A stretch of 64,000 nucleotides of DNA, from assembly GCA_049294275.1 (NCBI GenBank), contig JBAQCQ010000050.1:7729-71728 (forward strand). Reading direction: 5' to 3'. The translations under genes were made by a program, and so were the position numbers. The notes under the pieces were generated by a model. The model was given only the letters and a program-made list of their open reading frames with translations, ran no database searches and was not told where the DNA came from. The DNA is from Bacteroidales bacterium (GTDB lineage Bacteria; Bacteroidota; Bacteroidia; Bacteroidales; VadinHA17). Of this stretch, positions 3,076-56,068 are shown piece after piece. How positions within the stretch are numbered: position 1 is the first letter of the stretch; every line of letters begins with the position of its first letter.

Positions 3076-3190
3076 GTCAGGAGAACAGAAGGTCTGATGT
3101 CTGAAGTCAGAAGGTCAGGAGGAGTGGCGGCAGGCGACTGATGACTGGCGACTGATGACTGGAGACTGATGACTGACCTGAAGGTCACGA
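3076..3190. repeat. Period-7 tandem array, G(A/T)CTGNN family
   Basis: Heptads gtctgat gtctgaa gtcagaa occupy 3092-3112. Six in-phase heptads gcgactg atgactg gcgactg atgactg gagactg atgactg occupy 3134-3175. The array is intergenic, between the rnfA terminator and the hypothetical gene. Confidence 0.85.
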
Positions 3191-3363
3191 ACATGAAGAC
3201 AATAGATAAACCTCCGGTTGGTCAGTCACATTGAAAACGTCCTGTACTGTTTATTTATAACGACTTTCACGGACTGACAGAGGGTGTAACAGATGCAAAC
3301 ACGGAAAATTAAAAAAAAATCCAGATTAATACAAGGAAAAACGCTCCAAAATGCTACGGAGCA

Positions 3364-3394
3364 TAAAAAACCGCCGAGGGTCACTTCGGCGGTT
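3364..3394 (-). terminator. Rho-independent terminator of the rnf operon
   Basis: A 9-bp stem aaccgccga/tcggcggtt (3369-3377 with 3386-3394) has an 8-nt loop. On the minus strand a T-run follows (plus-strand A-run 3365-3370). A second small hairpin gctcc...ggagc lies at 3343-3362. The site is 62 nt downstream of the rnfA stop. Confidence 0.75.
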
Positions 3395-3455
3395 TGAGGC
3401 TCTACATTGCCGAAGCAGCGCGGCGGCGGCTTTGATTTTTAATGTTCAGTCGGGA

Positions 3456-4028
3456 TTAAACAAGCCCGGCAAATCCCATGAATGCCAGCGACAGGATACC
3501 GGCAGTTACAAGCGCTATCGGCGCTCCTTTCATACCGTTTGGTACATCTGCCAGCTCAAGCTGCTCACGGATACCGGCCAGGATAACCAGGGCCAGTCCG
3601 AAACCTATCGCAGTGGCTGCGCCATAGACAACTCCCTCCACCAGACTGTAGTCCTTCTTAATCACAAGAATGGCGACACCAAGCACGGCACAGTTCGTGG
3701 TGATAAGAGGCAGAAAAATCCCAAGTGCCTGGTATAGGGGCTGGCTGATCTTTTTCAGGATGATCTCAACCATCTGAACGAGAGCGGCAATCACCAGGAT
3801 GAACGTTATTGTCTGCATAAAAGCTATACCCAAAGGTACAAGGACATAGGTGTGAATCAGGTAGGTAACCATGGTCGCCAGGACTATGACAAAAACCACT
3901 GCCCCTGACATTCCCATTGCAGTACTTACTTTATTTGAAACACCCAGAAAAGGACAAACTCCCAGATACTGGGCCAATACTACGTTATTGACCAGTATAG
4001 CACTAATTATCAGTAAAATATATTCCAT
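3456..4028 (-). CDS. rnfA: Rnf electron-transport complex subunit A
   Basis: 190-aa polytopic protein with LGVCPFLGVS and TTNCAVLG motifs characteristic of RnfA/RsxA. It is the last gene of the rnf cluster. Confidence 0.95.
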   Translation of the reverse strand: MEYILLIISAILVNNVVLAQYLGVCPFLGVSNKVSTAMGMSGAVVFVIVLATMVTYLIHTYVLVPLGIAFMQTITFILVIAALVQMVEIILKKISQPLYQALGIFLPLITTNCAVLGVAILVIKKDYSLVEGVVYGAATAIGFGLALVILAGIREQLELADVPNGMKGAPIALVTAGILSLAFMGFAGLV

Positions 4029-4040
4029 ATCGTTTCCTCC

Positions 4041-4625
4041 CTAAGCTTTCTTGTTGACACGGTTTACTATGGCTATCATATATCCAAGCGCTAAAAAGGC
4101 CCCTGGCGCAAGGATAAATACCAGGATACCGTCTCCCTCGATGAACTTGAAACCGGCAATGGCGCCGCTGCCAAGTATCTCCCTGATAGCGCCAAGCACC
4201 CCCAGCGCCGCGGTGAAACCAAGCCCCATGCCGGCACCGTCAACAACGGATGACCAGACAGTGTTCTTGCTGGCAAACGCTTCGGCACGGCCAAGAACAA
4301 TACAGTTGACAACTATCAGGGGGATGAAAATACCCAGTGTCTCGTACAGCGAAGGAACATAGGCCTGCATCACCAGGTCAACTATCGTGACAAAGGTGGC
4401 TATCACCACTATGAAAGCCGGTATACGTACCTTGTCCGGTATCACGTTCTTCATCATCGAGATCACTGTGTTCGAGCCAAGCAGCACAAACATGGTTGCC
4501 AACCCCATGCCTATCCCGTTGACCATTGACGATGTGGTCGCCAGGGTCGGACACGTACCCAGAATCATCACCAGTATGGGATTCTCCTTTAAAAAGCCTT
4601 TGGTGAAATTTTGCAGCTGGTTCAT
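4041..4625 (-). CDS. rnfE: Rnf electron-transport complex subunit E
   Basis: 194 aa with GTCPTLATT and [14 protein letters not shown] motifs typical of RnfE/NqrD. It overlaps rnfG by 4 nt. Confidence 0.95.
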
Positions 4626-5215
4626 TTCAAACCTCCTTTCTCAAATGTGTTGTATGCCCTCTGAATGCCGTCACAAAACGCCCTTGAACTGATGGTGGCA
4701 GCCGTGATGGCATCAACCGGACCACCGTCCTTTTTTACCTTAAGAGGAAATTCTGCAGGATTCTTTCCCCTGAACTGATCCTTGAACTCGGGCTTCTCCG
4801 GCGTGCCGTCAGGAACCATCTTCGTTCCAAGTCCCGGTGTCTCCTTATGCTCCAGGATATTAATGTTATAGATAGCCCCGTCAGGGGTGAATCCCACCAT
4901 AAATCCTATGTAACCGCTGAAGCCGTTGTTGGTGTATGACCTGATGGCATACCCTACAGTATCCTCCCCATTCTTTGCAGGGTAAACCTCAAGTGAATCG
5001 CCTTCACCTGTGGGCAGCATGAACATCTCATCGTTAGGATTGTTCGTGAATTCCGGTACTACCCGCTTGATGGCATCCAGCTTCTTGTTAAGCATCGATA
5101 TCTCTATCGGCGTCTTCGTCATCTCATAAACAATACCAAGCGCTGCCGAGGCCCCAAGGGAGATCATAGTCAGCGAAAGAACCATGTTCTTCAGTGATGA
5201 TTGCATCTTAGCCAT
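4622..5215 (-). CDS. rnfG: Rnf electron-transport complex subunit G (FMN-binding)
   Basis: 197 aa with an N-terminal TM anchor and the FMN-binding-domain motif [12 protein letters not shown]. Confidence 0.9.
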
Positions 5216-6209
5216 GCTTCACCTCCTTTCCGAACCTTGCAGGTTTTATGTACATGTTCAGCAGCGGCACAAAAGCATTCATAATCAGAATGGCAAACGA
5301 TACACCCTCGGGATAGGCCCCCCAGTTTCGAATAAGCACTGTGATAACCCCTATGCCAATGCCGTAAATGATCATCCCTTTATGCGTCATTGGCGATGTC
5401 ACATAATCAGTCGCCATGAAAATCGCACCCAGCATAATACCGCCGGTCAGAAGATGGAATCCGGGGTCAGCATATTTTGCCGGGTCAGCCAGCCAGAGGA
5501 TCCCTGTGAAAACAGCCACGGTAAGAAGCACCGAGACCGGAATATGCCAGGAGATAATTTTCCTCCATATCATGTAAATTCCGCCGATTATCAGAGCCAC
5601 AGCTGCTATCTCACCCATCGAGCCACCCATATACCCGTAAAAGAGCTGCATATGCGTCGGGACCTTCTCCATCAAAGCCGACACCGTCTCACCGTTCCTG
5701 ATTCCTTCACTCATGATACCCAGTGGCGTGGCACCGGTGACAGCATCAAAATAACCTGTACTGAAACCGGAAGGAACAGGCCAGCTGGTCATCTGCACAG
5801 GGAACGATATCAACAGGAACACTCTTCCCACCAGCGCCGGGTTGAAGGGGTTGCTGCCCAGCCCCCCGAAAGTCATCTTGGCAACGCCGATAGAGATGAC
5901 CGCCCCGATGATGATAATATATACCGGCAGGTTGGAGGGCACATTGAATGCAAGCAGCAGCCCTGTGACTACCGCAGAACCGTCTGTCACAGATGGCTTT
6001 GTCTTCAGGATAAACTTCTGCGTCAGGTACTCAACCGCGACACATGAGAGCACCGAGGTGAGAGTCACGATTATTGCCCCAACCCCGAAAAAGTATATCG
6101 AGGCTGCCAGCGCAGGCGCCAGGGCGATCACCACGCCGTACATCAGCCTGCGGGTCGTTTCCGGGCTCTGCTGGTGCGGTGATGGGGAGACATTGAGGAT
6201 GTTATTCAT
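5208..6209 (-). CDS. rnfD: Rnf electron-transport complex subunit D
   Basis: 333-aa polytopic protein with AVTGATPLG (flavin attachment region) and FMATDYVTSP, typical of RnfD/NqrB. Confidence 0.95.
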   Translation of the reverse strand: MNNILNVSPSPHQQSPETTRRLMYGVVIALAPALAASIYFFGVGAIIVTLTSVLSCVAVEYLTQKFILKTKPSVTDGSAVVTGLLLAFNVPSNLPVYIIIIGAVISIGVAKMTFGGLGSNPFNPALVGRVFLLISFPVQMTSWPVPSGFSTGYFDAVTGATPLGIMSEGIRNGETVSALMEKVPTHMQLFYGYMGGSMGEIAAVALIIGGIYMIWRKIISWHIPVSVLLTVAVFTGILWLADPAKYADPGFHLLTGGIMLGAIFMATDYVTSPMTHKGMIIYGIGIGVITVLIRNWGAYPEGVSFAILIMNAFVPLLNMYIKPARFGKEVKHG

Positions 6210-6221
6210 ATCGCTTCTGTG

Positions 6222-7583: not shown

Positions 7584-7680
7584 TTATCAGTTCGTTGCTG
7601 CTTTTCTCAGTTTGTCTCAGCCTCTGCCAGTTTTTTGCTGCTATCAGTTTATTCTTGTCATTATCAGTTCGTTGATGCTT
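7583..7680. repeat. 21-nt direct repeat (20/21 identical) flanking the 77-nt rnfB-rnfC spacer
   Basis: attatcagttcgttgCtgctt at 7583-7603 and attatcagttcgttgAtgctt at 7660-7680, offset 77 nt. The second copy encodes the rnfB C-terminus and stop codon. The first abuts the rnfC start region. Confidence 0.85.
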
Positions 7681-8527: not shown

Positions 8528-8530
8528 CTG

Positions 8531-8950
8531 TCAGACCTTTATTTTGAATTCAAACTTTTTCCCGATTATGCCTCTCAGCAGCCATATGGACAGGTAGTAC
8601 AGGCCCACCGCTGCAAACGACAACATCGCCGACACCACTTCCCCGGCCCCGGTAACAGTTGTGATGACAAACACTGCTATAAGCACAATGAAGGGAATGA
8701 TGTATCCTATTGCCAAAGCACGGAAGCCCTGTGACACCTGCATCACAACCATGACATGATCACCAGCCTTGATGGCGGCGCTGTTTTTTACGGTTATGAT
8801 CCTGGTGTCAGCCTTGCCGGGAGAGCATACCGATTTGGCAAGGCATCCCGAGCAGGCCTCAGCAGTGATTATCTCCACCTCGGCTGTGCCGTCACCCGGC
8901 ACCCTTAAAACCGTCCCTTCATGTGTGATTGTCTCTTCCTGCGGCATCAA
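8531..8950 (-). CDS. RseC/MucC-family (SoxR-reducing system) membrane protein, first gene of the rnf operon
   Basis: 139 aa. An N-terminal soluble part carries CSGCLAKSVC and is followed by two TM helices. It lies 3 nt upstream of rnfB. This architecture and position are typical of RseC-like genes preceding Bacteroidota rnf operons. Confidence 0.8.
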   Translation of the reverse strand: MMPQEETITHEGTVLRVPGDGTAEVEIITAEACSGCLAKSVCSPGKADTRIITVKNSAAIKAGDHVMVVMQVSQGFRALAIGYIIPFIVLIAVFVITTVTGAGEVVSAMLSFAAVGLYYLSIWLLRGIIGKKFEFKIKV

Positions 8951-9140
8951 AAAAATATTGCAGCCGCAATTTTAAGGAATTACGGGGAATTAATAAAGAA
9001 CAACAGTCATAATTTTGGGAAGTCCGAAAGTCCTTAAAGTCGAAAGCCGGGAGGTCTGTCGCTTTTTGCTCCGTCATGCAGCCCTGCTGCCACGCAGTCT
9101 AAATGCATTAATTTCAGTTCGTACTCCTTAATTCTTCTCT

Positions 9141-9217
9141 ATTGCCGACTGCCGACTGCCGATTACCGACTGCCGATTGCCGACTGCCGACTGCCGATTG
9201 CGGATTGCGGACTGCCG
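9141..9217. repeat. Heptanucleotide tandem array, 11 x A(C/T)T(G/A)C(C/G)G
   Basis: attgccg actgccg actgccg attaccg actgccg attgccg actgccg actgccg attgcgg attgcgg actgccg, read directly in phase from 9141. Confidence 0.95.
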
Positions 9218-9255
9218 AATAGGATTTGAGATTGACAGTGGTATAACATCTTTCA

Positions 9256-9290
9256 AAACCGCAAACCGCAAACCGCAAACCGCAAACCGC
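9256..9290. repeat. Heptanucleotide tandem array, 5 perfect copies of AAACCGC
   Basis: aaaccgc x5 at 9256-9290, ending 18 nt from the recG stop codon (9309). Confidence 0.95.
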
Positions 9291-9308
9291 AAATTCTGCT
9301 ACCTGAAT

Positions 9309-11414
9309 TCAGCTGATATCACTCCACGAATACTTCTTCCCGAAAAGTCTCCGGAGCGTGGCCCTGAGCACCTGGTTATCCGGGTGCGACAGCTCAGGGT
9401 CATCACCCAGGATCTCCTCTGCCCGCGACCGGGCGAGGTTGAGTATCTGCCCATCCTTGCCGAGATCAGCAATCTTAAGGTCGAAGGCCATTCCGCTCTG
9501 CTGCGTCCCCTCGAGGTCACCCGGCCCGCGCATGCGGAGATCGGCCTCTGCTATCTCGAAGCCGTCGTTTGTCGCTATCATCGTGTTGATGCGCTCAGAA
9601 GCCTCTGCAGAGCGCTTGTGCGATGTCATCAGTATGCAGTACGACTGGTCGGCGCCACGGCCCACCCGCCCCCTCAGCTGGTGCAGCTGAGACAGGCCGA
9701 AGCGCTCGGCGCTCTCTATCACCATCACACTTGCATTGGGAATGTCAACCCCTACCTCTATGACGGTTGTTGCAACCATTATCTGGGCCTGGCCGCGGCG
9801 GAACAGGTTCATCGAAATCTCCTTGTCCTTCGAAGTCATCCGGCCATGCACCACGCTGATACAATACTGAGGCGGAGGGAATGCCCGGGCCATGCTTTCC
9901 AAACCATCCTCAAGATCTTTGTAATCAAGCGATTCGGACTCACTTATCAACGGGTAAACAACGTATACCTGCCTGCCGTCCTCTATCTGCCTCCGCATGA
10001 AGCCGAACACCTTCTCGCGCTCTGCGTCCGTGAAACTCATCGTCTTTACCGGCTTGCGCCCGGGAGGCATCTCATCAATAACCGAGACATCAAGGTCTCC
10101 GTAGAGGGTCATCGCCAGGGTACGGGGAATAGGAGTGGCCGTCATAACAAGCACATGAGGCGGGCATTCGCTCTTCTGCCACAGCCTGGCCCTCTGCGCC
10201 ACACCAAAGCGGTGCTGCTCGTCAATTATCACCAGCCCGAGGTTCTTATACTTCACGGTCTCCTCAATAAGCGCATGCGTCCCTACCAGAATAGATATGC
10301 TCCCGTCAAGCAACCCGTTCTCTATCCGCACCCGCTCACTGCGCTTCGTCGAGCCGGTGAGCAGAGCCGCTTCGGCGTTAATCCCGCTTATAAACCGGCT
10401 GATAGAATTGAAATGCTGTATGGCAAGCACTTCAGTAGGAGCCATCAGGCAGCTCTGGAAGCCGTTGTCGGCCCCGATAAGCATGCTCATAAGCGCAACC
10501 ATCGTCTTGCCGCTTCCCACATCGCCCTGCAGAAGCCTGTTCATCTGTCGGCCGCTGCCGAGATCCGCCCTGATCTCCCGTATAACTCTTTTCTGAGCCT
10601 CAGTCAGTGCAAAAGGCAGGTTGTTGGCGTAAAACGAATTTAGCCTCTCGCCAACCACCGAGAAGAGAAACCCGCGTGTGTTCTTCGCCCGGCTGCCCTT
10701 GTATCTCAGGAGATTGAGCTGTATATAGAAAAGCTCCTCGAACTTCAGCCTGAAACGGGCTTTGTCTATGTCGAGGTTGGAGTCAGGAAAATGAATGCGG
10801 AAGAGGGCATCGGAGAGACTCATCAGCTTCATCTGCCCTGTAATGGAGTCAGGCAGTGTCTCCGCTAAGCGAAGCGAGGGCTGCGAGAAGGCGGTCGCCA
10901 TCAGCTTAGCGATGGCTTTCGAATGCAGAAAATGATCCTTCATCTTCTCGGTTGTGCTGTACTGAGCCTCGAATGCAGAGGAGACCCTCGTTTCCCGCTT
11001 ATCAGCCTCTTCCACCTCCGGATGGACTATGTTGAAGGCACCGCTGAAGAGAGAAGGTTTACCATATATAATATACTCTTTTTCAATTTTATAGGCGTTG
11101 AGAACCCATTTATGGCCCTTGAACCATACCAATCTGACCATACCTGTCTCGTCATAGAAATCAGCGGTGAGCCTCGTGCCCCTGCCGCCACCCTCAGTTG
11201 AAAAACGGCGAATCTTACCCCTGACCTGTACGTACTGCATGTCGGTGTCAAGCTCACTGACCTTGTAAAAACGGGTCTTGTCAATATACTTGTAGGGAAA
11301 ATAGTAGATGAGGTCCCTGAATGTATGTATGTCAGCCTCCGCCTCAAGCAGTTCAGCCCGCTTCGGACCAACACCGGGAAGGAATTTTATCTCACTGTCA
11401 AGCAGTTCAGACAT
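9309..11414 (-). CDS. recG: ATP-dependent DNA helicase RecG
   Basis: 701 aa with Walker A GDVGSGKT, DEQH box IIDEQHRFGV, an N-terminal wedge/OB region and C-terminal helicase motifs (QLRGRVGRG). Confidence 0.95.
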   Translation of the reverse strand: MSELLDSEIKFLPGVGPKRAELLEAEADIHTFRDLIYYFPYKYIDKTRFYKVSELDTDMQYVQVRGKIRRFSTEGGGRGTRLTADFYDETGMVRLVWFKGHKWVLNAYKIEKEYIIYGKPSLFSGAFNIVHPEVEEADKRETRVSSAFEAQYSTTEKMKDHFLHSKAIAKLMATAFSQPSLRLAETLPDSITGQMKLMSLSDALFRIHFPDSNLDIDKARFRLKFEELFYIQLNLLRYKGSRAKNTRGFLFSVVGERLNSFYANNLPFALTEAQKRVIREIRADLGSGRQMNRLLQGDVGSGKTMVALMSMLIGADNGFQSCLMAPTEVLAIQHFNSISRFISGINAEAALLTGSTKRSERVRIENGLLDGSISILVGTHALIEETVKYKNLGLVIIDEQHRFGVAQRARLWQKSECPPHVLVMTATPIPRTLAMTLYGDLDVSVIDEMPPGRKPVKTMSFTDAEREKVFGFMRRQIEDGRQVYVVYPLISESESLDYKDLEDGLESMARAFPPPQYCISVVHGRMTSKDKEISMNLFRRGQAQIMVATTVIEVGVDIPNASVMVIESAERFGLSQLHQLRGRVGRGADQSYCILMTSHKRSAEASERINTMIATNDGFEIAEADLRMRGPGDLEGTQQSGMAFDLKIADLGKDGQILNLARSRAEEILGDDPELSHPDNQVLRATLRRLFGKKYSWSDIS

Positions 11415-11486: not shown

Positions 11487-12425
11487 ATGAACCTTTATCC
11501 TGTGATGGCCTTTGTCAGACACCTGTTAACTGCCAGGAGCACGGCAGGACACGGGGTGCACAGTCCGTTCGTCTTTGATTTTCTGACAAATGTGGTCCGG
11601 GGAAAGGGTGACCCGAAAATTTCCGTCGAGGTTGAGAGTCTTCGTCGGGAGATGCGCTCTGACCGGCGAACAGTAATGGTAACCGACCTCGGAGCAGGCT
11701 CAGCCACTCGGAAAGGAGAGGAGCGAAGGATTTCAGAAATTGCAGGCACGGCCGCGATGCCTCCCAGGCAGGCAGGATTGCTGGCAAGGATAGCACAGAG
11801 TGAAGTGTTCAGGACTCAGGGTGAAGGGCTCAGAGCGAAGGGCTCAGAGCTCAGGACTCAGGGTGAAGAGCTCAGAGCTAAGAGCATTCAGGGAGCGAAT
11901 AAGCACAGTTCCGCGAAAACGGGCGGGCTCAGGGAACGTACCTCGGAGAGAGTGTCAGACGATTCAATTATACTGGAACTTGGAACATCACTCGGGATAA
12001 GCACACTGGCGCTGGCGCTTGCGGCTCCGGAGAGACAGGTGGTGACCGTTGAGGGTTGCCCGGCGCTTGCGGAAATTGCCCGGCAAAACCTCCTCAGACA
12101 CGGCGCCGTAAACGTCACGGTGATTAACATGGAGTTCAGCAAGGCACTCGAAATGCTCAGGACCCACGGAACAACCGTCTCCCTGGCCTTCATAGATGGC
12201 AACCACAGGGGCACGGCCCTGAAACAGTACACTGAAATCATACTGTCAATGGGGAATGAAATGATCATCGTGGCCGACGACATTCATCTCACCCGCGAAA
12301 TGTACGGAGCATGGCGCTCACTGGCATCATCGGACATTGCCGCTGCAACCATGGAAACATTCCGGTTCGGAATCCTCTTCTGTCACCGCAACCTTACACC
12401 GGGAGACTACCGCATCAGACATTAA
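11487..12425 (+). CDS. Class I SAM-dependent methyltransferase (O-methyltransferase-like) carrying a repeat-derived internal insert
   Basis: 312 aa with the N-terminal conserved HGVHSPFVFDF and SAM motif I ILELGTSLGIS, followed by FIDGNH...VADDIH. About 56 low-complexity residues (aa 105-160) lie between the N-terminal region and motif I. Confidence 0.75.
   Translation: MNLYPVMAFVRHLLTARSTAGHGVHSPFVFDFLTNVVRGKGDPKISVEVESLRREMRSDRRTVMVTDLGAGSATRKGEERRISEIAGTAAMPPRQAGLLARIAQSEVFRTQGEGLRAKGSELRTQGEELRAKSIQGANKHSSAKTGGLRERTSERVSDDSIILELGTSLGISTLALALAAPERQVVTVEGCPALAEIARQNLLRHGAVNVTVINMEFSKALEMLRTHGTTVSLAFIDGNHRGTALKQYTEIILSMGNEMIIVADDIHLTREMYGAWRSLASSDIAAATMETFRFGILFCHRNLTPGDYRIRH
11809..11885. 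repeat. Period-7 tandem array inside a coding sequence (11 heptads; 28-nt unit repeated at 42-nt offset)
   Basis: tcaggac tcagggt gaagggc tcagagc gaagggc tcagagc tcaggac tcagggt gaagagc tcagagc taagagc. Positions 11809-11836 and 11851-11878 differ at 1 of 28 nt. In frame the array reads FRTQGEGLRAKGSELRTQGEELRAK. Confidence 0.9.
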
Positions 12426-23883: not shown

Positions 23884-26025
23884 ATGGATCCTTCAGCACA
23901 TATTAAGACCATAGCACAGAAGCTTCACCTGCACGACTGGCAGGTTGAGAACACGCTGCGTCTTCTTGACGACGGAGCTACCATACCGTTTATAAGCCGC
24001 TACCGCAAGGAGGTGACAGGCAGTCTGGATGAGGTTCAGCTCGCCGGTATACGTGACGAATACGAGAGGCTCCGGGAGCTGGAAAAACGGAGGGAGGCCA
24101 TAATCAAATCTATAGAGGAACAGGAGAAAATGACCACTGAGTTGCTGGCGAAAATCAATGCTGCCATGACGCTGTCGCAACTCGAGGATCTCTATCTTCC
24201 CTTCAGGCCGAAACGCAAGACACGTGCATCGGTGGCGCGGTCAAAAGGGCTTGAGCCATTAGCTTTGTGGCTGCTTGAGCAGAGGCCGGGTGACCCTGAG
24301 AGCGAAGCCGCGAAATACACAGGTGATGAGGTTGAAACCGCTGATGAAGCCCTGGCCGGGGCACGCGATATCATAGCGGAGATTGTAAGCGAGAACGAAC
24401 AGGTGCGTGGCTCGCTTCGGAAGCTCTATGAACGCGATGCCGTCATCACATCCAGAGGTGTGAAGGGTAAGGAGGAGGAGGGAAACAAGTTCAGCGACTA
24501 TTTTGAATGGTCCGAACCGCTGCGCCGCTGCCCGTCACACAGGTTCCTGGCTATGCTCCGCGGCGAGGAGGAGGAATTCCTGAGAATCACGATCATGCCG
24601 GCAGAGGATATGGCTGTGGAAACGGTGGAGAAGCTGTTTGTCAAATCAAACAACAACGCTTCACGCCAGGTGAAGGAGGCTGTCTCCGACAGCTGGAGCC
24701 GCCTGCTGGCGCCCTCCATGGAGACTGAGTTCAGGAAAACGGCCAAGGAAAAGGCTGACGAGGAGGCTATCCGCGTTTTTGCCGATAACCTGCGCCAGCT
24801 GCTGCTGGCACCGCCACTGGGCGAGAAGAGCGTCCTGGCCCTCGATCCGGGCTTCCGGACGGGATGCAAGGTAGTCTGCCTCAACAGGCAGGGGGCCCTG
24901 CTCCATCATGACGTGATCTACCCGCACCCCCCGCAGAACGAGACCGCCCGGAGTGTCAGCAAACTCCTCTCGCTGGTCGACAGCTATGGCATTGAGGCAA
25001 TAGCGATTGGAAACGGAACGGCAAGCAGGGAGACGGAGGAGTTTATAAAGCAGTACCTACCGTCGGAGTCGGGAATAAAGATATTTGTGGTGAACGAAGC
25101 GGGCGCATCAATATACTCGGCTTCAAAGATTGCCCGCGATGAGTTCCCGGAACAGGACGTCACAGTGCGCGGCGCGGTCTCAATCGGCCGCCGCCTGATG
25201 GACCCGCTGGCGGAGCTGGTGAAGATTGACCCCAAATCGATCGGTGTCGGTCAGTACCAGCATGACGTGGATCAGGTACGACTGCAGACCGGTCTCGATG
25301 AGGTTGTAATGTCATGCGTCAATGCGGTGGGAGTGGAGGTGAACACCGCCAGCCCGCACCTGCTTACTTACGTCTCTGGCCTTGGCCCTAAGCTGGCACA
25401 GAATATTGTCGATTACCGGACTGAAAAGGGACCCTTCCGTTCGCGTGCCGAACTGATGAACGTTAAAAGGATGGGCGACAAGGCCTACGAACAGGCCGCC
25501 GGGTTCCTCAGGATAAGAAACGCCGCCAACCCGCTCGACGCTTCTGCCGTGCACCCCGAGAGCTATCATATAGTGGAGAGGATGGCAAAGGATGCAGGAT
25601 GCACCGTGGCTGACCTGATCCGTGATGAGGCCAGGAGAAAGTCAATAAATATTGAAAGATATATCACACCTGAGGCCGGACTGCCTACACTCAAGGATAT
25701 AATGGCCGAGCTGGCGAAGCCGGGGCGCGACCCGAGGTCATCAATACAGGAGTTCAGCTTCGCGGATATTCACACCCTGGAGGATGTGAAGGAGGGGATG
25801 GTGGTGCCCGGAATCGTAACAAACATCACGAAGTTCGGAGCCTTCGTTGATATCGGGGTCAAGCAGGACGGGCTTGTGCATGTCTCCCAGATGGCAGACC
25901 GCTACGTCAACGACCCGTCAAAGGTGGTCAAACTCCACCAGCACCTGATGGTACGCGTTGTCAGCGTAGATCTTGCCCGAAAGCGGATTCAGCTTTCGCT
26001 GAAGGGATTAGGCAGTAGGCAGTAG
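23884..26025 (+). CDS. tex: Tex-like transcription accessory protein (S1 RNA-binding)
   Basis: 713 aa with the N-terminal Tex helix-turn-helix region (IPFISRYRKE), a YqgF-like domain, HhH, and a C-terminal S1 domain (GIVTNITKFGAFVDIG). Confidence 0.93.
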   Translation: MDPSAHIKTIAQKLHLHDWQVENTLRLLDDGATIPFISRYRKEVTGSLDEVQLAGIRDEYERLRELEKRREAIIKSIEEQEKMTTELLAKINAAMTLSQLEDLYLPFRPKRKTRASVARSKGLEPLALWLLEQRPGDPESEAAKYTGDEVETADEALAGARDIIAEIVSENEQVRGSLRKLYERDAVITSRGVKGKEEEGNKFSDYFEWSEPLRRCPSHRFLAMLRGEEEEFLRITIMPAEDMAVETVEKLFVKSNNNASRQVKEAVSDSWSRLLAPSMETEFRKTAKEKADEEAIRVFADNLRQLLLAPPLGEKSVLALDPGFRTGCKVVCLNRQGALLHHDVIYPHPPQNETARSVSKLLSLVDSYGIEAIAIGNGTASRETEEFIKQYLPSESGIKIFVVNEAGASIYSASKIARDEFPEQDVTVRGAVSIGRRLMDPLAELVKIDPKSIGVGQYQHDVDQVRLQTGLDEVVMSCVNAVGVEVNTASPHLLTYVSGLGPKLAQNIVDYRTEKGPFRSRAELMNVKRMGDKAYEQAAGFLRIRNAANPLDASAVHPESYHIVERMAKDAGCTVADLIRDEARRKSINIERYITPEAGLPTLKDIMAELAKPGRDPRSSIQEFSFADIHTLEDVKEGMVVPGIVTNITKFGAFVDIGVKQDGLVHVSQMADRYVNDPSKVVKLHQHLMVRVVSVDLARKRIQLSLKGLGSRQ
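26009..26025. repeat. Short heptad repeat TAGGCAG x2.4 forming the last codons and stop codon of tex
   Basis: taggcag taggcag tag at 26009-26025. The final TAG is the tex stop codon. Confidence 0.6.
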
Positions 26026-26174
26026 TGTCAATTATTGCCCGTAGGGCATATAGTATTGTAGTTAAATGACATATATTATTAGATACATTCCCCGTAGAGC
26101 CTGCCCCGATAGCCGTCTGACGTATCTGGGGGGTAAAGTATTGTAGGACAACGTATTAACTATAAATATTTTCT

Positions 26175-45376: not shown

Positions 45377-46777
45377 ATGAAAGAGTTATTGCATAACAAA
45401 TTCTTTAAATTTGGCGTAGCTGCCGTGCTTTTCATATTGTGGGTCCTATGGATAGGCAACTTCTGGCTGCTCCTTGGCCTGCCAGTAGTGTTTGACATCT
45501 ATATAAGCAAGAAGGTCAACTGGGCTTTCTGGAAGAAGCGTCACGGAAAGAACAGCACTGTGATCGAATGGCTTGATGCCCTGATCTTCGCAGTGATAGC
45601 CGTAACCCTCATCAATATCTTCCTTTTCCAGAACTACCGTATCCCCACGCCCTCAATGGAGAAGACCCTCCTCGTGGGTGATCATCTTGCGGTTAGCAAG
45701 GTTGCCTATGGCCCGCGCATGCCGAACACCCCCGTTGCCTTCCCCTTTACACAGCATACAATGCCCTTTACTGGCGGCAAGGGAAAGTCATGGTCAGACC
45801 TGGTCCACTGGAAATACAAGAGACTCAAGGGATTCGGACATGTGAAAAATGATGATATAGTGGTATTCAACTTCCCGGCAGGTGATACCGTCTGTCTCGA
45901 ACAGCAGGCAATCAGTTACTATGAGATACTCAGGGAACAGACCGAGATGTTCACCGCAGAGGATATCAGGGCGGGAAGAGCGCCCAGGAGCAAGGAGGAG
46001 TACTATGCCAGGGCAAGGCAGATGGTCTGGAATGAGTACACGGTCATCTACAGACCCGTTGACCGCCGCGATAATTACGTTAAGAGATGTATTGGCATAC
46101 CCGGCGATACGATAAGGATCAGCGGAGGAAAACTCTTTGTGAATAACACTGAGGCGAAGGTGCATGATACCCAGCAGACCTCATACTATGTACGTACCAA
46201 CGGCACCCGCATTAACCCAAAGGCCTTCGAGAGAATGGGTGTTTCGAAGTCTGACCAGTCTCTAATGCTGTCGGGCACAGTTTACAGGCTTCCCCTGACG
46301 GCGGAAAATGCTCAGACCATCTCCGGCTTTGCCAATGTAACGGGCATCGAGGCCGACTACAACAGGCCGGGTGAATATACCCCGGCAGTCTTCCCCCATG
46401 ATCCGCAGTACAGATGGAACCAGGATAACTTCGGCCCTCTCTGGATACCGAAAAAAGGAACCACTGTGATGATTGACATGACCAATATCAGTCTATATAC
46501 ATCTATAATAGATATCTACGAGGAGAACGACCTTGAGATCCGTGACAGCCTGATCCTGATAAACGGCAAGCCTGCTGAATCCTACACCTTTAAAATGGAT
46601 TACTACTGGATGATGGGCGACAACCGGCATGGCTCATCCGATTCGCGGTACTGGGGCTTCGTCCCTGAGGATCACATCGTCGGCAGACCAGTTCTGGTCT
46701 GGCTCTCGATCGACAAGGAGGCCGATGGCTTCAGGAAGATAAGGTTCAACAGGTTTTTCAAGGGAGCCAAAAGGTAA
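45377..46777 (+). CDS. lepB: Signal peptidase I (long Bacteroidota form)
   Basis: 466 aa with the catalytic Ser box PTPSMEKTL, Lys box YVKRCIGIPGD and GDNRHGSSDSRYWGFVP. Confidence 0.9.
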   Translation: MKELLHNKFFKFGVAAVLFILWVLWIGNFWLLLGLPVVFDIYISKKVNWAFWKKRHGKNSTVIEWLDALIFAVIAVTLINIFLFQNYRIPTPSMEKTLLVGDHLAVSKVAYGPRMPNTPVAFPFTQHTMPFTGGKGKSWSDLVHWKYKRLKGFGHVKNDDIVVFNFPAGDTVCLEQQAISYYEILREQTEMFTAEDIRAGRAPRSKEEYYARARQMVWNEYTVIYRPVDRRDNYVKRCIGIPGDTIRISGGKLFVNNTEAKVHDTQQTSYYVRTNGTRINPKAFERMGVSKSDQSLMLSGTVYRLPLTAENAQTISGFANVTGIEADYNRPGEYTPAVFPHDPQYRWNQDNFGPLWIPKKGTTVMIDMTNISLYTSIIDIYEENDLEIRDSLILINGKPAESYTFKMDYYWMMGDNRHGSSDSRYWGFVPEDHIVGRPVLVWLSIDKEADGFRKIRFNRFFKGAKR

Positions 46778-46778
46778 T

Positions 46779-46827
46779 TTGCGATTGTCGATTGGCCGAT
46801 TAAATCGAAAATCGAAAATCGATAATA
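46779..46827. repeat. Period-7 tandem array starting 2 nt after the lepB stop codon
   Basis: ttgcgat tgtcgat tggccga ttaaatc gaaaatc gaaaatc gataata, running directly into the terminator A-tract. Confidence 0.85.
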
Positions 46828-46853
46828 AAAAAGCGGGTCTCGCCCGCTTTTTT
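46827..46853. terminator. Bidirectional rho-independent terminator shared by lepB (+) and rplT (-)
   Basis: aaaaaaGCGGGtctcgCCCGCtttttt: a 5-bp GC stem extendable through the A/T tracts, with an A6 run on one side and a T6 run on the other. Confidence 0.8.
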
Positions 46854-50068: not shown

Positions 50069-50090
50069 TTTTCAAATTTTAAATAGTTTG

Positions 50091-50098: not shown

Positions 50099-50215
50099 AT
50101 GATTTTTAAAGGATCTTAAACAGCTCCTCCATGCATGGTAAAACCCATCCGTTTGTGGAAATTATTAATTGGCACAGATTTTGGATTTAACAAAACAGCA
50201 CTAATAACGGCAGTC

Positions 50216-50908: not shown

Positions 50909-50960
50909 ATCCGGTTCAGACAAAAATATCGGGCGCAGATATCCATTTGATAAATTTTAT

Positions 50961-50968
50961 TAAGTTTG
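50961..50968 (+). promoter_or_regulatory. Candidate -7 promoter box (TAnnTTTG) for the symporter gene
   Basis: Exact match taagtttg, 30 nt upstream of ATG 50999. Confidence 0.4.
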
Positions 50969-50998
50969 TGAGTTCACTAACCTAATCGAGATAATCAA

Positions 50999-52729: not shown

Positions 52730-52747
52730 CCTCAAAAAACAAAGATC

Positions 52748-52960
52748 ATGTTAGATATAAGATTTCCGATTGGACTGATGTTCTCGACCTTCGGGCTGAT
52801 CATTACAGTGTACGGCCTGGCAACCATGGGCAATGATGCAATGTATGTGCGTTCACTCAATGTGAATGTCAACCTGATCTCCGGCCTGTGCACACTGGCC
52901 TTCGGCCTGGTAATGCTCTTCCTCTCAGATCCGGTAAAGAAAATACTCCGGAAAAAGTAA
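52748..52960 (+). CDS. Small two-TM membrane protein downstream of the symporter
   Basis: 70-aa ORF lying 18 nt after the symporter stop. It has two hydrophobic helices (IGLMFSTFGLIITVYGLA and LISGLCTLAFGLVMLFL) and is followed by a terminator. Confidence 0.5.
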   Translation: MLDIRFPIGLMFSTFGLIITVYGLATMGNDAMYVRSLNVNVNLISGLCTLAFGLVMLFLSDPVKKILRKK

Positions 52961-52971
52961 CGGGTGACTAC

Positions 52972-52999
52972 AAAAAAAGCTGCGAGAGCGGCTTTTTTT
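52972..52999. terminator. Bidirectional rho-independent terminator between the small membrane protein gene (+) and lysA (-)
   Basis: aaaaaaaGCTGCgagaGCGGCttttttt: a 6-bp stem with one G:U pair, a GAGA tetraloop, and A7/T7 flanks. Confidence 0.75.
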
Positions 53000-53015
53000 G
53001 TCAATTTAAATCCAT

Positions 53016-54167
53016 TTACAAATCATCGGAAAATACCGATGGCGGGAGGGAGCGCATATTGTACCGCATTGCCATCACCTCGCCGTAAGCCCCTGCCGAA
53101 CGTATAGCTATAAGGTCTCCGCGCCGGGTCTCCGGCAGTGAAATGAATTTTCCGAAGGTGTCAGTGGTTTCGCAGACAGGTCCGGCAACCGTATACTTTT
53201 TTGGGGGCAGCACCGAAGTGAGATTCTCAATACGGTGCAGGGCATGGTATAGCGCAGGCCTCAGCAGTTCTGTCATCCCTGCATCAAGGATTAGAAAGGT
53301 CTCCCCGGTACCAGGCTTCACGAACAGCACCTTAGAGATCAGCGAACCGCAACCGGCAGTGAGCGATCTGCCCAGCTCAAAGGAGATGGTGCTTCGTATG
53401 TTCCTGTCAAGATGCTTCCTGAAAATTTCGAAGTAATCGGCAAACGCGGGAAACCGGTCAGGTTCCTCGTAGCTTATGCCGAGACCTCCCCCAACATTGA
53501 TATCGAAGGGCTCCATATCCCTGTCAGAGAGCCACTGCCATATCTCATTCACCCTGGTGCAGAGATTCCGGTAGACATTGAGATCGGTGATCTGTGATCC
53601 TATGTGTAAGTGAATTCCCCTGAAGTCAACGTTCTTTAGTCCGGCCAGAAGGGAGATGACCTTTTCAAGTTCAGCAATCCTTATACCGAATTTGTTTTCA
53701 TCGGTACCGGTGGTGATGTTCCTGAGTGTGTGGGCCTCCACATTCGGATTGATCCTCAGTGCAACAGCCGCCCGATGCCCTGTTCTGCCTGCAATCTCCT
53801 CTATGACCTCCAGCTCACCGGCAGACTCGGCATTGAAACATTTAATCCCGAGTCTCAGTGCTGTTTCAATCTCCCTGTCGCTTTTACCAACACCTGCGAA
53901 CACCGTTTCTCCGGCAGAAAAGCCGCAGCTCACGGCATGTTCAATCTCGTTTCCGCTCACACAATCAGCCCCTAACCCGTACCCTGAAATGATTTTCATT
54001 ATTACCGGGTTGAAGTTGGCCTTGACGGCATAGTGCAGTCTGAAACCCCTGTTGACGGCCTCTCCCGAAGCCACCGACAGTGTTTCGCGCAACCGGTCGA
54101 GATCATAGTAGTAGAAGGGAGTCTCGTGTCTCTTCAGTTTCTCTGTCAATTCATTCGTGAACATCAT
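53016..54167 (-). CDS. lysA: Diaminopimelate decarboxylase
   Basis: 383-aa fold-III PLP decarboxylase with PLP-Lys motif HYAVKAN and HIGSQI. It overlaps lysC by 4 nt. Confidence 0.93.
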   Translation of the reverse strand: MMFTNELTEKLKRHETPFYYYDLDRLRETLSVASGEAVNRGFRLHYAVKANFNPVIMKIISGYGLGADCVSGNEIEHAVSCGFSAGETVFAGVGKSDREIETALRLGIKCFNAESAGELEVIEEIAGRTGHRAAVALRINPNVEAHTLRNITTGTDENKFGIRIAELEKVISLLAGLKNVDFRGIHLHIGSQITDLNVYRNLCTRVNEIWQWLSDRDMEPFDINVGGGLGISYEEPDRFPAFADYFEIFRKHLDRNIRSTISFELGRSLTAGCGSLISKVLFVKPGTGETFLILDAGMTELLRPALYHALHRIENLTSVLPPKKYTVAGPVCETTDTFGKFISLPETRRGDLIAIRSAGAYGEVMAMRYNMRSLPPSVFSDDL

Positions 54168-55483
54168 TCCTGCGTAAAAAGTTTGGCGCTGAGCGATCTG
54201 AGGGCTGTTAACTTGTCGCTCGTATTTATAAGTATTGATACACTGTTTTCACTGCCTCCGTATGATATCATCTTGACTGGTATGACATTCAGCGCCTCGA
54301 ATATTTCCGGGGCGGACCCTACCCTGTCAGGCCTGAAGTCCCCGACGACACAGATTATCGTCTGATCCTTTTCAACTTCAACGGCCCCAATCGAACTCAG
54401 GGTTCTGACTATCTCGCTGAGGTGGGTAGGGTCTTCAATCGTAAGCGAAACCGAGACCTCGGATGTTGTGATCATGTCTATCGGCGTCTTGAAAGCTTCG
54501 AAGGCTTCGAAAATCCTCCTCATGAAACCGTATGCCATCAGCATCCTGTCGGATTGGATTCTGAGCGCGGTGATCCCATCTTTTGCAGCAACGGCCTTAT
54601 AATCCTCCCGTGGTGATTCAGAAGTGATCAGCGTTCCTTCATCGGAGGGCTCCATTGTGTTCTTCAGCCTGACGGGGATATTCTTCAAACGGGCAGGGTT
54701 GATGCTGGAGGGATGGAGTATTTTCGCTCCGAAGTAGGCAAGCTCTGCCGCTTCACCATAGGAAAGGCTCCTTATCACCCGCGTGCCCTCTACATACCTC
54801 GGGTCATTGTTATGCAGCCCGCTGATATCCGTCCATATCTGAACTTCCTCAGCTCCGATGGCCGTCCCGGTGATGGTGGCGCTGTAGTCACTCCCTCCGC
54901 GGTGGAGGTTGTCAGTCTCTCCGTAAGCATTACGGCAGATGAATCCCTGGGTAATAATGATCTTTTCGTCCTTCACAGATGCCATCTCACGCTTCAGGTT
55001 CTCCCTTATATAGAAATAGTCGGGTTCGCCATCCTTGTCTATCCTCATGTAATTAAGGGCCGGCAGCAGGAAGGAAGGGATTCCCGTCTCCGAAAGCAGA
55101 AAATGTAGCAGAGCCGTTGAGATCAGTTCGCCGCGGGCAACAATGCGCTTCTCATTGTGACGGCTGTACTCACGCGTGAAGAGGTTGACGATATAATCGA
55201 AATGTTCATCGATCAGGTCATGCGCCCCCTCAGCCCAGGTTGATGAGGCGAAAAGCTCACCTGCAACAGTGTGATATCTGGCACGAAGCACACCTGTCTT
55301 TTTGCCTGCATCGTTTTTATTTCCTGTTGCAAACAGTTCCGAAATCTCTACAAGGGCATTTGTGGTACCAGCCATTGCCGACAGAACGACAATCTTCAAC
55401 TCACCGTCGTTTATAAGAGGGATCAGCGCCCTGAACCGCTCAGGACTTCCCACAGAGGTGCCCCCGAATTTATAGACCTTCAT
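54164..55483 (-). CDS. lysC: Aspartate kinase
   Basis: I place the start at ATG 55483 (MKVYKFGGTSVG, the kinase N-terminus). C-terminal ACT domains are present. The track's TTG start at 55552 lies upstream of the predicted -7 box at 55540-55547, so the box falls inside that extension. Confidence 0.92.
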   Translation of the reverse strand: MKVYKFGGTSVGSPERFRALIPLINDGELKIVVLSAMAGTTNALVEISELFATGNKNDAGKKTGVLRARYHTVAGELFASSTWAEGAHDLIDEHFDYIVNLFTREYSRHNEKRIVARGELISTALLHFLLSETGIPSFLLPALNYMRIDKDGEPDYFYIRENLKREMASVKDEKIIITQGFICRNAYGETDNLHRGGSDYSATITGTAIGAEEVQIWTDISGLHNNDPRYVEGTRVIRSLSYGEAAELAYFGAKILHPSSINPARLKNIPVRLKNTMEPSDEGTLITSESPREDYKAVAAKDGITALRIQSDRMLMAYGFMRRIFEAFEAFKTPIDMITTSEVSVSLTIEDPTHLSEIVRTLSSIGAVEVEKDQTIICVVGDFRPDRVGSAPEIFEALNVIPVKMISYGGSENSVSILINTSDKLTALRSLSAKLFTQE

Positions 55484-55539
55484 CTTCCTTCTCTGTACCA
55501 GATGCTGCCTCTGCGGCATCCATTCCATTGTTTGGGGAT

Positions 55540-55547
55540 CAAATATA
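55540..55547 (-). promoter_or_regulatory. Candidate -7 promoter box (TAnnTTTG on the minus strand) for lysC-lysA
   Basis: Plus-strand caaatata is tatatttg on the minus strand, 56 nt upstream of ATG 55483. Confidence 0.4.
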
Positions 55548-55619
55548 GGCAAAAGTGAAATCTGTAATTAAAAATTACGCTCTTTTCAGCAAAGAGGCAC
55601 GTTGATTAAAAAAAATCTT

Positions 55620-55627
55620 TATTTTTG
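55620..55627 (+). promoter_or_regulatory. Candidate -7 promoter box (TAnnTTTG) for the tRNA-Leu pair
   Basis: Exact match tatttttg, 92 nt upstream of the first tRNA. Confidence 0.35.
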
Positions 55628-55684
55628 CACCCGCGTTAAAGGACAAAGGGTAAAGGCGCAAGACAAATGAGTTCATTTTCAACA

Positions 55685-55719
55685 TTTGACTTTCGACTTT
55701 TGATTTTCGACTTTTAATT
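55685..55719. repeat. Period-7 array abutting the 5' end of tRNA-Leu(CAG)
   Basis: tttgact ttcgact tttgatt ttcgact tttaatt. The next base (55720) is tRNA position 1. Confidence 0.85.
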
Positions 55720-55803
55720 GCCCAGATGGCGAAATTGGTAGACGCGCTAGTTTCAGGGACTAGTGTCAGCAATGATGTGCAGGTTCGAGTCCTGTTCTGG
55801 GCA
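55720..55803 (+). tRNA. tRNA-Leu (anticodon CAG), class II with long variable arm
   Basis: Acceptor stem GCCCAGA/TCTGGGC, D-loop AATTGGTAG, anticodon stem CTAGT/ACTAG with loop TTCAGGG (CAG at 55754-55756), a long variable arm, T-loop GGTTCGAGTCC and discriminator A. No CCA is encoded. Confidence 0.93.
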
Positions 55804-55890
55804 CAGAAAGCAGCACAGAGCGCAGTGCAAGGAGCACAGAGCAGTAACACGCTGCCCTGAGCCCAGAGCCCTGGGCCCTGAGCCAAAACC
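55804..55890. repeat. Period-7 array filling the entire spacer between the two tRNA-Leu genes
   Basis: cagaaag cagcaca gagcgca gtgcaag gagcaca gagcagt aacacgc tgccctg agcccag agccctg ggccctg agccaaa acc. There are two sub-families, GAGCNCA and AGCCCNG. Confidence 0.85.
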
Positions 55891-55974
55891 GCCCAGGTGG
55901 TGAAATTGGTAGACACGCCAGCTTGAGGGGCTGGTGCTCGTAAGGGTGTGCAAGTTCGAGTCTTGTCCTGGGCA
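55891..55974 (+). tRNA. tRNA-Leu (anticodon GAG), class II with long variable arm
   Basis: Acceptor stem GCCCAGG/CCTGGGC, anticodon stem CCAGC/GCTGG with loop TTGAGGG (GAG at 55925-55927), T-loop AGTTCGAGTCT and discriminator A. Confidence 0.93.
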
Positions 55975-55978
55975 CACG

Positions 55979-56005
55979 AAAAAAGCCGTGAAGAACGGCT
56001 TTTTT
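55979..56005. terminator. Bidirectional rho-independent terminator after the tRNA pair (+) and the GH3 fusion gene (-)
   Basis: aaaaaaGCCGTgaagaACGGCtttttt: a 5-bp stem with a 5-nt loop and A6/T6 flanks. Confidence 0.75.
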
Positions 56006-56068
56006 ATTTTCGATTTTTTATCTTCGATTTGGGACCGTTAAAAATCGTCAATCGCAAATCACAAATTA
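56006..56068. repeat. Period-7 array between the terminator and the stop codon of the GH3 fusion gene
   Basis: attttcg atttttt atcttcg atttggg accgtta aaaatcg tcaatcg caaatca caaatta. The reverse complement of 56043-56057 (ttgcgattgacgatt) matches 46779-46793 (ttgcgattgtcgatt) at 14 of 15 positions. Confidence 0.8.

Follow-up and report, generated by a model that had tools for sequence, protein, structure and literature searches.

Heptad tandem arrays in the spacers of an uncultured Bacteroidales lineage: dispensable simple-sequence repeats drawn from a few unit families

Since 1990, tandem repeats of seven nucleotides have been recognised in some bacterial genomes, and left unexplained. Among long simple sequence repeats (LSSRs), those with a heptanucleotide unit form the most abundant class in most bacterial genomes, and the preference for seven has been ascribed, as a possibility, to the length of DNA contacted by the polymerase, with slippage as the proposed origin (Mrazek 2007, to the extent that it is summarised in PMC4679880 and PMC4692102). 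In Xanthomonas (GGGAATC) and Nostoc (GGGGA(C/T)T) the heptamers are intergenic, lie between ORFs (open reading frames) that are aligned, less than 50 bp from stop codons, and have heterogeneous units with a conserved core; their position is kept and their length varies between species, and inverted pairs that converge occur often (70 of 186 in X. campestris; Rehm 2015, PMC4692102). Five Bacteroidetes carry arrays of TAACTGA and "other heptamer direct repeats", relatives that share the gene order are without them, and CspB has been suggested to bind the TAACTGA repeats with one heptamer per protein (MacGregor 2015, PMC4679880). An earlier inspection of the DNA studied here, made from its letters alone and called below the sequence-only reading, was thus mistaken in holding that no equivalent had been described in Bacteroidota. 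Our subject is a set of heptad arrays in 64,000 nucleotides of a Bacteroidales bacterium of the VadinHA17 lineage (assembly GCA_049294275.1, contig JBAQCQ010000050.1, positions 7,729 to 71,728 of the forward strand), the whole of which we call the window. On balance we favour the reading that these are slippage-driven simple-sequence repeats from a few unit families, which persist where a change of length is tolerated and expand symmetrically on pre-existing hairpins. Such sites, to which the arrays are almost wholly confined, are those just after stop codons, the leader, spacer and trailer of a tRNA-Leu operon, the flanks of bidirectional terminators, and one insertion-tolerant protein linker.

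How real is the 7-nt period? Arrays were called with Tandem Repeats Finder (TRF), tallied by period at a score of at least 40, and with a uniform detector of our own (match +1, mismatch -2, score at least 10); Markov-1 shuffles of the window served as the null model for array counts. Of the window arrays that our detector found, six have period 7, four period 14 and one period 21; periods 4-6 and 8-11 gave none, and the shuffles yielded about 0.1 arrays per period. In the TRF tally, eight of nine window arrays have a period that is a multiple of 7. Lags of 7, 14, 21 and 28 stand out as peaks in the autocorrelation of intergenic DNA (4.6 kb), and are gone after masking of the arrays, which account for about 12% of these bases; the coding DNA of the window shows a period-3 signal only. 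All nine intervals that the sequence-only reading singled out hold up, as each of them coincides with or contains TRF arrays whose period is 7, 14, 21 or 28. The period is indeed 7 nt, but it is not strict, as had been said, throughout 3076-3190 and 55804-55850. Two sequence matches noted at that stage are also correct, the 11-mer at 9036-9046 being the reverse complement of 55690-55700, and 46779-46793 agreeing with the reverse complement of 56043-56057 at 14 of 15 positions; a GTCGAAA placed at 46806-46820 was misread, the stretch being cgaaaatcgaaaatc, which holds ATCGAAA. Nor are the arrays artefacts of assembly, as had been allowed for, since dozens of assemblies made independently, from short reads and from long ones, have arrays at the same spacers. 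One array version was recovered identical from five metagenomes.

Does the predominance of period 7 extend to the relatives? For the close relatives we used 46 recG loci from a species-representative genome set, with RecG 80-93% identical, all of them from metagenome-assembled genomes (MAGs) of uncultured Bacteroidales or "Rikenellaceae"; a distant RecG set comprised 34 loci, 54-64% identical. The recG loci were picked because the window carries arrays there, and they are therefore an ascertained sample. Raw counts over 769 kb of the relatives give 71 arrays of period 7 and 18 each of periods 8 and 9. With the recG-adjacent regions removed, 593 kb remain, and the counts in them are 13 for period 7, 10 for period 8, 11 for period 9 and 11 for period 6, where most arrays are coding. 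A strong clade-wide excess of period 7 is weakened by this removal, which leaves periods 7, 8 and 9 about equal, each of periods 6-9 still being roughly ten-fold over the shuffle expectation. The expectation that period 7 should outnumber its neighbours is thus borne out in the window, where multiples of 7 dominate, but not in the relatives outside the ascertained loci. In four relatives (L009, L016, L033 and L036) it is 8-nt units that predominate. A distant set retrieved by aspartate kinase (L118-L170, 54-58% identical) consists of soil and rhizosphere metagenome contigs of about 42% GC; a multiple of 7 is the period of 59 of their 85 TRF arrays, and many are heptad arrays with other units (AAATCTC, GAAGTCG, ACTCACC, GCCAACT and GGACTAT). 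Clear heptad arrays are found as well in two named outgroups, a Bacteroidales MAG (L056) and a Marinilabiliaceae MAG (L045). Heptad arrays are scattered through other lineages too, some of them named Bacteroidota.

The comparison of about 65 related loci shows that the arrays can be dispensed with at each locus where a comparison was possible, and that they are remodelled in unit-sized steps. The recG-rnf spacer varies from 67 to 557 nt across relatives. About 30 of the 46 close recG spacers carry arrays directly past the recG stop codon, and their units are diverse (AGGCAAT, CAGTCCG, CAAATCG, GCTCCAT, CTACTGC and 8-9-nt GACYTTCA types). A promoter-proximal block of about 70 nt is kept in nearly all of the recG spacers compared, and in two of the closest relatives (L001 and L047, 93% RecG identity), which are without an array, the recG stop codon directly abuts this block. 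The arrays are therefore insertions between the stop codon and the conserved block. An exact-protein look-up of the RseC-like gene gave no match, so that the recG locus is without a same-species strain comparison. For the tRNA-Leu locus the relatives are metagenome contigs retrieved via the neighbouring aspartate kinase gene. The gap between the two tRNA genes is 8-9 nt in eight of these, and 61-86 nt in seven others and the window; the long gaps always hold an inverted heptad pair, of either GCRCAGA/GCYCTGA or GACAAAA/CTTTTAT units. Three tRNA leaders (L099, L109 and L116) are about 23 nt long and have no arrays, those of L102-L104 carry other heptads, and the trailer site in relatives has palindromic modules of either the CGATT or the CAGTC family. 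The lepB-rplT spacer, present in eight metagenome contigs, reads terminator, then (CGATTKY)n, then inverted (AATCGNN)n, with copy numbers that vary and one version identical across five samples.

Nearly identical contigs give a closer view of the remodelling. L098 and L101 are 99.9% identical over 6.3 kb, and their sole indel is one 8-nt unit of (CAGACCYT)n, of which there are six and five copies respectively; in L095 and L096 (99.8% identical), a two-base change converts one GACTGGA unit to GACTGCT. Unit-wise change rests on these two informative pairs, neither of which is a 7-nt copy-number change. Copy number at orthologous loci, a comparison that had been proposed with the sequence-only reading, does differ, both at lepB-rplT and between L098 and L101.

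The arrays fill the dispensable part of each spacer. Coding sequence makes up 88% of the window and clade loci taken together, yet 62 of the 77 period-7 arrays in them lie in intergenic DNA, and most of the 15 "coding" ones fall in one hypervariable methyltransferase linker; 21 of 27 period-6 arrays are coding. The spacers concerned are co-directional in 54 cases, convergent in one and divergent in one, counts that are pseudo-replicated by orthology. None of the eight purely divergent (promoter-only) spacers of the window holds an array. Arrays of the window either come after a stop codon, a tRNA or a terminator, or keep a distance of at least 130 nt from a start. That the arrays are placed at gene boundaries is true of six of the nine, which touch a stop codon, a tRNA end or a terminator; one of the others is translated and two are remote from boundaries. 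The remote ones do not lie within 20 nt of a gene end, as had been supposed, for 3076-3190 is at least 130 nt from any gene end or terminator, and 9141-9217 is about 190 nt from the nearest gene end and adjoins only another array. Two intervals taken for parts of non-coding gaps are coding: 11809-11885 sits in frame within the methyltransferase gene 11487-12425, and 26009-26025 encodes the end of tex, stop codon included.

Each array had also been credited with a heptad of its own. Instead, the window arrays reduce to three or four families, which recur at non-orthologous loci and in other genomes. One family, GACTG/CAGTC-NN, includes the arrays at 3092-3176 (whose minus strand shows the CAGTC-NN form) and 9141-9218 (in the recG sense CAGTCGG/CAATCGG), with a one-base variant, TAGGCAG, at 26009; a second, CGATT/AATCG-NN, includes those at 9256, 46779, 55677 and 56000; and a third, GCNCAGA, those at 11796 and 55808. 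Within families a 5-nt core is conserved and two positions vary. Among 46 distinct units ACTGC occurs in six, where 0.8 would be expected, and CGCAA and AATCG are enriched too. In BLAST comparisons the arrays at 3092-3176 match arrays at non-orthologous sites in L029 and L093; the array at 9141-9218 matches arrays in the orthologous spacer of L040, in the methyltransferase linker of L031 and in a spacer beside the aspartate kinase gene of L096; and the tRNA spacer array matches the methyltransferase linker of L027. Such between-locus matches are confined to the arrays, with unique flanks unmatched, except for one composite that we take up below. The short array at 9020-9046, missing from the list of the sequence-only reading, belongs to the same system, and its family recurs in the corresponding position of L002, L004, L005 and L048, in the form of arrays with 8- and 9-nt units. 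The relatedness of units is due partly, but not wholly, to common descent at orthologous spacers.

Two further repeats touch on the unit families. After tex, positions 26037-26146 of the window hold two copies of a motif GCCCGTAGGGCAT..AGTATTGTAG; written as GSCCRTAGGSCAT(A/T)AGTATTGTAG, the motif stands in two copies about 85 nt apart after (TAGGCAR)n both there and at 12140-12250 of L004. In L003, a 35-nt unit, as long as five heptads, stands four to five times in tandem at positions 12190-12390; in each copy a GC-rich hairpin, CCGCCGGTGGGCGG, lies between CGCAAAT and ACACAGT heptad-like ends.

Table 1. Heptad arrays of the window with their associated genes and terminators; coordinates are window positions.
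Position	Strand	Feature	Context	Basis
3092-3113		GTCTGAA x3	511-nt spacer from rnfA stop (3456) to DUF6263 gene start (2944)	TRF, detector
3133-3176		GACTGAT/GACTGGC, period 14	same spacer; both arrays downstream of rnfA terminator (3395-3368), about 130 nt from next start codon	TRF, detector
9020-9046		short 8-9-nt array, AAGTCCGA / GACTTTCG family	adjoins conserved rnf promoter block	TRF
9141-9218		(TGCCGAC/TGCCGAT) x10.9, period-21 super-repeat	gap between recG stop codon and rnf operon (all arrays of 9020-9293)	TRF; detector score 39
9256-9293		(AAACCGC) x5.4, perfect	ends 15 nt short of recG stop codon (9309-9311)	TRF
11796-11885	+	heptad-derived array GCTCAGR, periods 7/14/21/28	translated in frame inside SAM-methyltransferase (S-adenosylmethionine) gene 11487-12425	TRF; Pfam
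26009-26025	+	(TAGGCAG) x2.4, marginal alone	last four to five codons and TAG stop of tex (23884-26025)	TRF, Pfam
46779-46800		lepB-rplT arm, TTGCGAT TGTCGAT TGGCCGAT	follows lepB stop (46775-46777)	
46802-46826		lepB-rplT arm, inverted, AAATCGA x3.6	precedes bidirectional terminator 46827-46853, common to rplT	
55652-55719	+	tRNA leader module: purine-rich arm AAGGCGC AAGACAA (55652-55669), then array TTTGACT TTCGACT TTTGATT TTCGACT (55677-55719)	downstream of conserved promoter-like box TAtTTTTG (55620-55627); ends at first base of tRNA-Leu(CAG)	
55720-55804	+	tRNA-Leu(CAG)	first of tRNA-Leu pair	ARAGORN, Rfam
55808-55842		GCRCAGA-type heptads	86-nt tRNA-tRNA spacer	TRF
55854-55884		inverted partner GCCCTGA	86-nt tRNA-tRNA spacer	TRF
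55891-55975	+	tRNA-Leu(GAG)	second of tRNA-Leu pair	ARAGORN, Rfam
55979-56005		terminator hairpin	tRNA trailer	
56006-56030		inverted heptad arm, ATTTTCG ATTTTTT ATCTTCG	tRNA trailer	
56040-56066		inverted heptad arm, AATCGTC AATCGCA AATCACA	tRNA trailer; pair reaches stop codon (56066-56068) of convergent GH3/beta-lactamase gene	

Gene content around the arrays was taken from Pfam (10 window proteins), ARAGORN, Rfam and an intrinsic-terminator scan. At the gathering threshold, Rfam finds in the whole window the two tRNAs alone, and the arrays coincide with no known RNA family. They are not canonical terminators in their own right, as the scan puts the real ones beside them (46827-46853 and 55979-56005) or upstream (3395-3368). 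Neither are they Rho sites, for the C-rich, G-poor skew of the sense strand is modest (C 772 against G 559) and is reversed in the window itself. Upstream of the tRNA-Leu pair (window 55600-55640, and the leaders in L093-L110) there is a conserved block, aaaaaatctttatttttgcaCCCGC; the TAtTTTTG in it fits the Bacteroidetes -7 promoter consensus, TAnnTTTG. The aspartate kinase ORF at 54164-55552 (minus strand), as listed, begins about 22 codons too early: relatives align from residue 22-25 onward, which puts the true start near 55486, so that the spacer to the tRNA operon is longer than in the ORF list. The array at 55854-55884 has four CCC tracts with 4-nt spacing (GGG on the minus strand), and is the only one in the window with G-quadruplex or i-motif potential. 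The rplT gene (ribosomal protein L20; 46854-47200, minus strand) is broken into two ORFs by a 1-nt deletion in an A-run, CTTG-AGAGG against CTTGAAAAGG in three relatives. This frameshift is most likely an assembly indel error, and array copy counts in the window are accordingly to be taken with some care.

The methyltransferase array is the case in which a repeat of this kind has entered a protein. The linker that bears it joins the N-terminal approximately 100 residues to the Rossmann motif IILELGTSLG, both of which are conserved across relatives, and it ranges in length from nearly none in L018 (about 5 residues at the shortest) through about 60 residues in the window to more than 200 in L008. 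In L031 the linker consists of 7-residue TADCRLK repeats, encoded by CAGTC-type heptads. The array is in frame in all of the orthologues examined, and linker arrays persist only as 21-nt super-repeats. Among the orthologues (L001-L073), the linker of L008 is made of 23-residue repeats, which are also translated DNA repeats.

What process might account for these arrays? In the account that we favour, replication slippage or unequal exchange would create and remodel them, with units longer than about 4 nt escaping mismatch repair. A founder unit family, once in the lineage, would keep seeding and homogenising arrays, which would account for the dominance of a few cores (CAGTC/ACTGC, AATCG/CGCAA, GCNCAGA, TAGGCAR). 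At sites that already had a small hairpin, such as the tRNA leader, the tRNA-tRNA spacer or a terminator flank, both hairpin arms may have grown in heptad steps, and the outcome would be long hairpins with one mismatch per heptad. The short leader aaagacatatctttc of L099, L109 and L116 looks like the unexpanded form of the heptad palindromes of the window and L103, and suggests just such an expansion of both arms. Effects on RNA 3' ends, on processing or on spacer length would then be by-products rather than a sequence-specific function. Several observations sit badly with this account. One would think that independent births by slippage should give unrelated units, yet families recur. When the 38 distinct consensus heptads are compared, with rotation and strand allowed, no more than one base separates the members of 52 pairs, and for shuffled units the number of such pairs is 16 +/- 3.6; of the 46 distinct units 7 contain CAGTC, where 0.8 would be expected; and BLAST finds the same families at non-orthologous loci. 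The composite of (TAGGCAR)n and a 25-nt motif that lies downstream of tex in the window lies downstream of recG in L004, which looks like dispersal. A fixed 7-nt polymerase footprint leaves unexplained the relatives that prefer 8- or 9-nt units. The contigs L099 and L109, 97.8% identical over 3.6 kb, have as their sole large indel a 72-nt palindromic heptad module, gained or lost in one step and not by units. Finally, the recG-side pair (9150-9295) folds to -55.8 kcal/mol as RNA of the minus strand, which is the transcribed one, and its z of -4.5 there compares with -1.5 for the opposite strand; the hairpin of the tRNA spacer, for its part, is retained in five relatives. Both would fit selection on RNA structure.

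Could the arrays then be REP-like structural elements, akin to repetitive extragenic palindromic (REP) sequences, that is, transcribed hairpins selected to shield mRNA or tRNA precursors from 3' exonucleases, to insulate convergent genes or to guide tRNA-Leu processing? We think this unlikely, though it is the strongest of the alternatives. An array stands beside an inverted counterpart at four window loci. The array at 9256-9293 is complementary to the end of that at 9141-9218 (74-79%), the tRNA-tRNA spacer folds to -31.3 kcal/mol (z = -3.2), the lepB-rplT arms are 88% complementary (fold z = -1.7 to -2.4), and the inverted repeat of the tRNA leader, 55652-55719, reaches 83%. With the retained tRNA-spacer hairpin and the strand bias of the recG-side fold, one may set the palindromic module found right after bidirectional terminators at two loci and in relatives, in either unit family, and the position of arrays downstream of stop codons and of the conserved tRNA promoter-like box, so that they are probably transcribed. 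Against it, the modules are missing from close relatives at every locus; compensatory change in the tRNA-spacer hairpin is seen in only 2 of 22 pairs; and the folds of 3076-3190, 55640-55719 and 56003-56068 are no better than those of shuffles. The proposal that every array has an inverted partner, put to the test in two ways, fails, since among 95-112 arrays in related loci such partners turn up no more often than in the reversed-sequence control. Pairing thus belongs to particular loci. Less probable again, and in our view doubtful, is that the arrays are dispersed or mobile modules, small non-autonomous elements like MITEs (transposable elements of miniature size, with inverted repeats), REPs and their bacterial interspersed mosaic elements (BIMEs), or the cyanobacterial small dispersed repeats, copied by a recombinase or by template switching. 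The recurrence of unit families at unrelated loci of different genomes would fit, as would the composite of non-orthologous spacers, which may be a small dispersed element, the 81% identity over 53 nt between the tRNA trailer and the lepB-rplT module, and the presence or absence of the 72-nt module between L109 and L099. That indel, however, has neither a target-site duplication nor terminal inverted repeats at its flanks, matches between loci other than the one composite stop at the array ends, and module lengths and unit mixes differ everywhere. No transposase or REP-associated tyrosine transposase (RAYT) is among the 10 Pfam-annotated window proteins, in which no search aimed at them was made.

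The putative roles in protein binding, in RNA processing signals and in the tuning of promoters or terminators, which had been suggested from the sequence, are weakened because the corresponding positions in close relatives are without arrays. A protein with a 7-nt register on DNA or single-stranded nucleic acid, for example cold-shock or S1-like as proposed for TAACTGA, could account for the conservation of a 5-nt core with two variable positions, and the literature supplies a model in CspB, at one heptamer per protein (PMC4679880). We consider such binding arrays very improbable, however, as several unrelated cores coexist, relatives have a unit shifted to 8 or 9 nt, the arrays are dispensable, and their orientation to transcription is not fixed, those at recG being G-rich in the sense strand in the window and C-rich in most relatives. 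The last of these possibilities is that the arrays are contingency (phase-variation) loci, with a copy number that adjusts the geometry of promoters or terminators. Near-identical strains do differ in copy number, but the arrays lie upstream of the conserved promoter block and not between promoter elements or within the promoter-to-start distance, the purely divergent spacers of the window are free of them, the coding array is kept in frame, and the neighbours are housekeeping genes; of all the readings this one has the slimmest chance. Slippage-driven repeats from a few families remain, to us, the better account.

A broader proposal is that the arrays, far from being passive products of slippage, are the footprint of an active, sequence-biased process that acts across phyla, either a REP/BIME-like mobile hairpin system or a repeat-templating or repair activity. 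We hold this to be rather improbable, about on a par with dispersal by mobile modules. If true, it would explain the CAGT-core heptads found at unrelated loci here, in the Nostoc GGGGACT and STRR repeats and in the TAACTGA arrays of Beggiatoaceae, the palindromic modules of either family beside terminators and tRNAs, and the presence or absence of the 72-nt module between strains 98% identical. A REP-like role or dispersal, if true, would be more interesting than slippage. Nothing in the present evidence points to a new regulatory system. All the same, this lineage is sampled well enough, through dozens of MAGs and metagenome contigs, for one to trace at fixed loci how arrays are born and lost, how their units change and how palindromes expand. 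It could constrain models of the 7-nt preference, in that unit families, and not the period as such, appear to be inherited, that a protein linker was entered only as 21-nt super-repeats, and that some relatives have 8- or 9-nt units. On the practical side, such arrays break short-read assemblies, and they could act as strain markers.

How do the arrays compare with described systems? Like the REP/BIME sequences of enterobacteria they are intergenic, often 3' untranslated, arranged in places as inverted hairpin pairs and variable between strains. REPs, however, are conserved palindromes of about 35 nt without internal 7-nt periodicity and linked to RAYTs; in place of the defined ends and near-identical copies of REP, BIME or MITE elements we find matches in the arrays alone and a 72-nt indel without terminal repeats. 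Compared with phase-variable contingency loci, the arrays stand outside the conserved promoter block, and the coding one stays in frame. The STRR heptamers of cyanobacteria, reportedly described by Mazel and colleagues in 1990, are said to have the units CCCCAGT, TTGGTCA and CAACAGT. The resemblance to them that the sequence-only reading proposed stands for the period and the placement, as STRRs too have a period of 7, several unit types per genome and intergenic positions; it fails for the units, for none of our 46 consensus heptads is identical and the CAGTC core alone is shared. STRR1 and STRR3 when rotated presumably give CAGTCCC and CAGTCAA, with the CAGTC core of the main family here. 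STRRs belong to heterocystous cyanobacteria, whereas the arrays here are from another phylum, and the RecG relatives are Bacteroidales MAGs.

The TAACTGA repeats (MacGregor 2015, PMC4679880) share with our arrays that they are intergenic heptamer direct repeats in Bacteroidetes, and that relatives with the same neighbourhood are without them. They are in forward orientation a few nt upstream of start codons, whereas the window arrays mostly come after stops. The window has no tandem TAACTGA, its sole site within two mismatches being a chance-level match, and the related loci have one exact dimer, in L019 only. With the Xanthomonas and Nostoc repeats (Rehm 2015, PMC4692102) the agreement is wider: both kinds are intergenic, between co-oriented genes, near stops, with a conserved core, variable length and inverted pairs. 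On its opposite strand, the Nostoc unit GGGGACT contains the CAGTC core found here; the sharing of this core by the Nostoc and STRR repeats is a lead, not a result. Unlike the Rehm repeats, the arrays here show no preference for four units, and most are without G-tracts and G-quadruplexes, the pattern of at least three G per unit over at least four units being confined to 55854-55884, with its four CCC/GGG tracts. The closest likeness is to the LSSRs (Mrazek 2007, as far as the summaries in PMC4679880 and PMC4692102 describe them), which are likewise tandem 7-nt units of above-chance length, mainly intergenic, with lineage-specific abundance and slippage as the proposed cause. The differences are that this lineage is outside those surveys, that several unit families occur, and that relatives have 8- and 9-nt units. 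Here too the units stand head to tail beyond chance, 7 nt is the dominant length in the window, coding DNA is avoided, and whole-unit change is seen in two pairs. The arrays are a known kind of repeat, in a lineage where it was previously unexamined.

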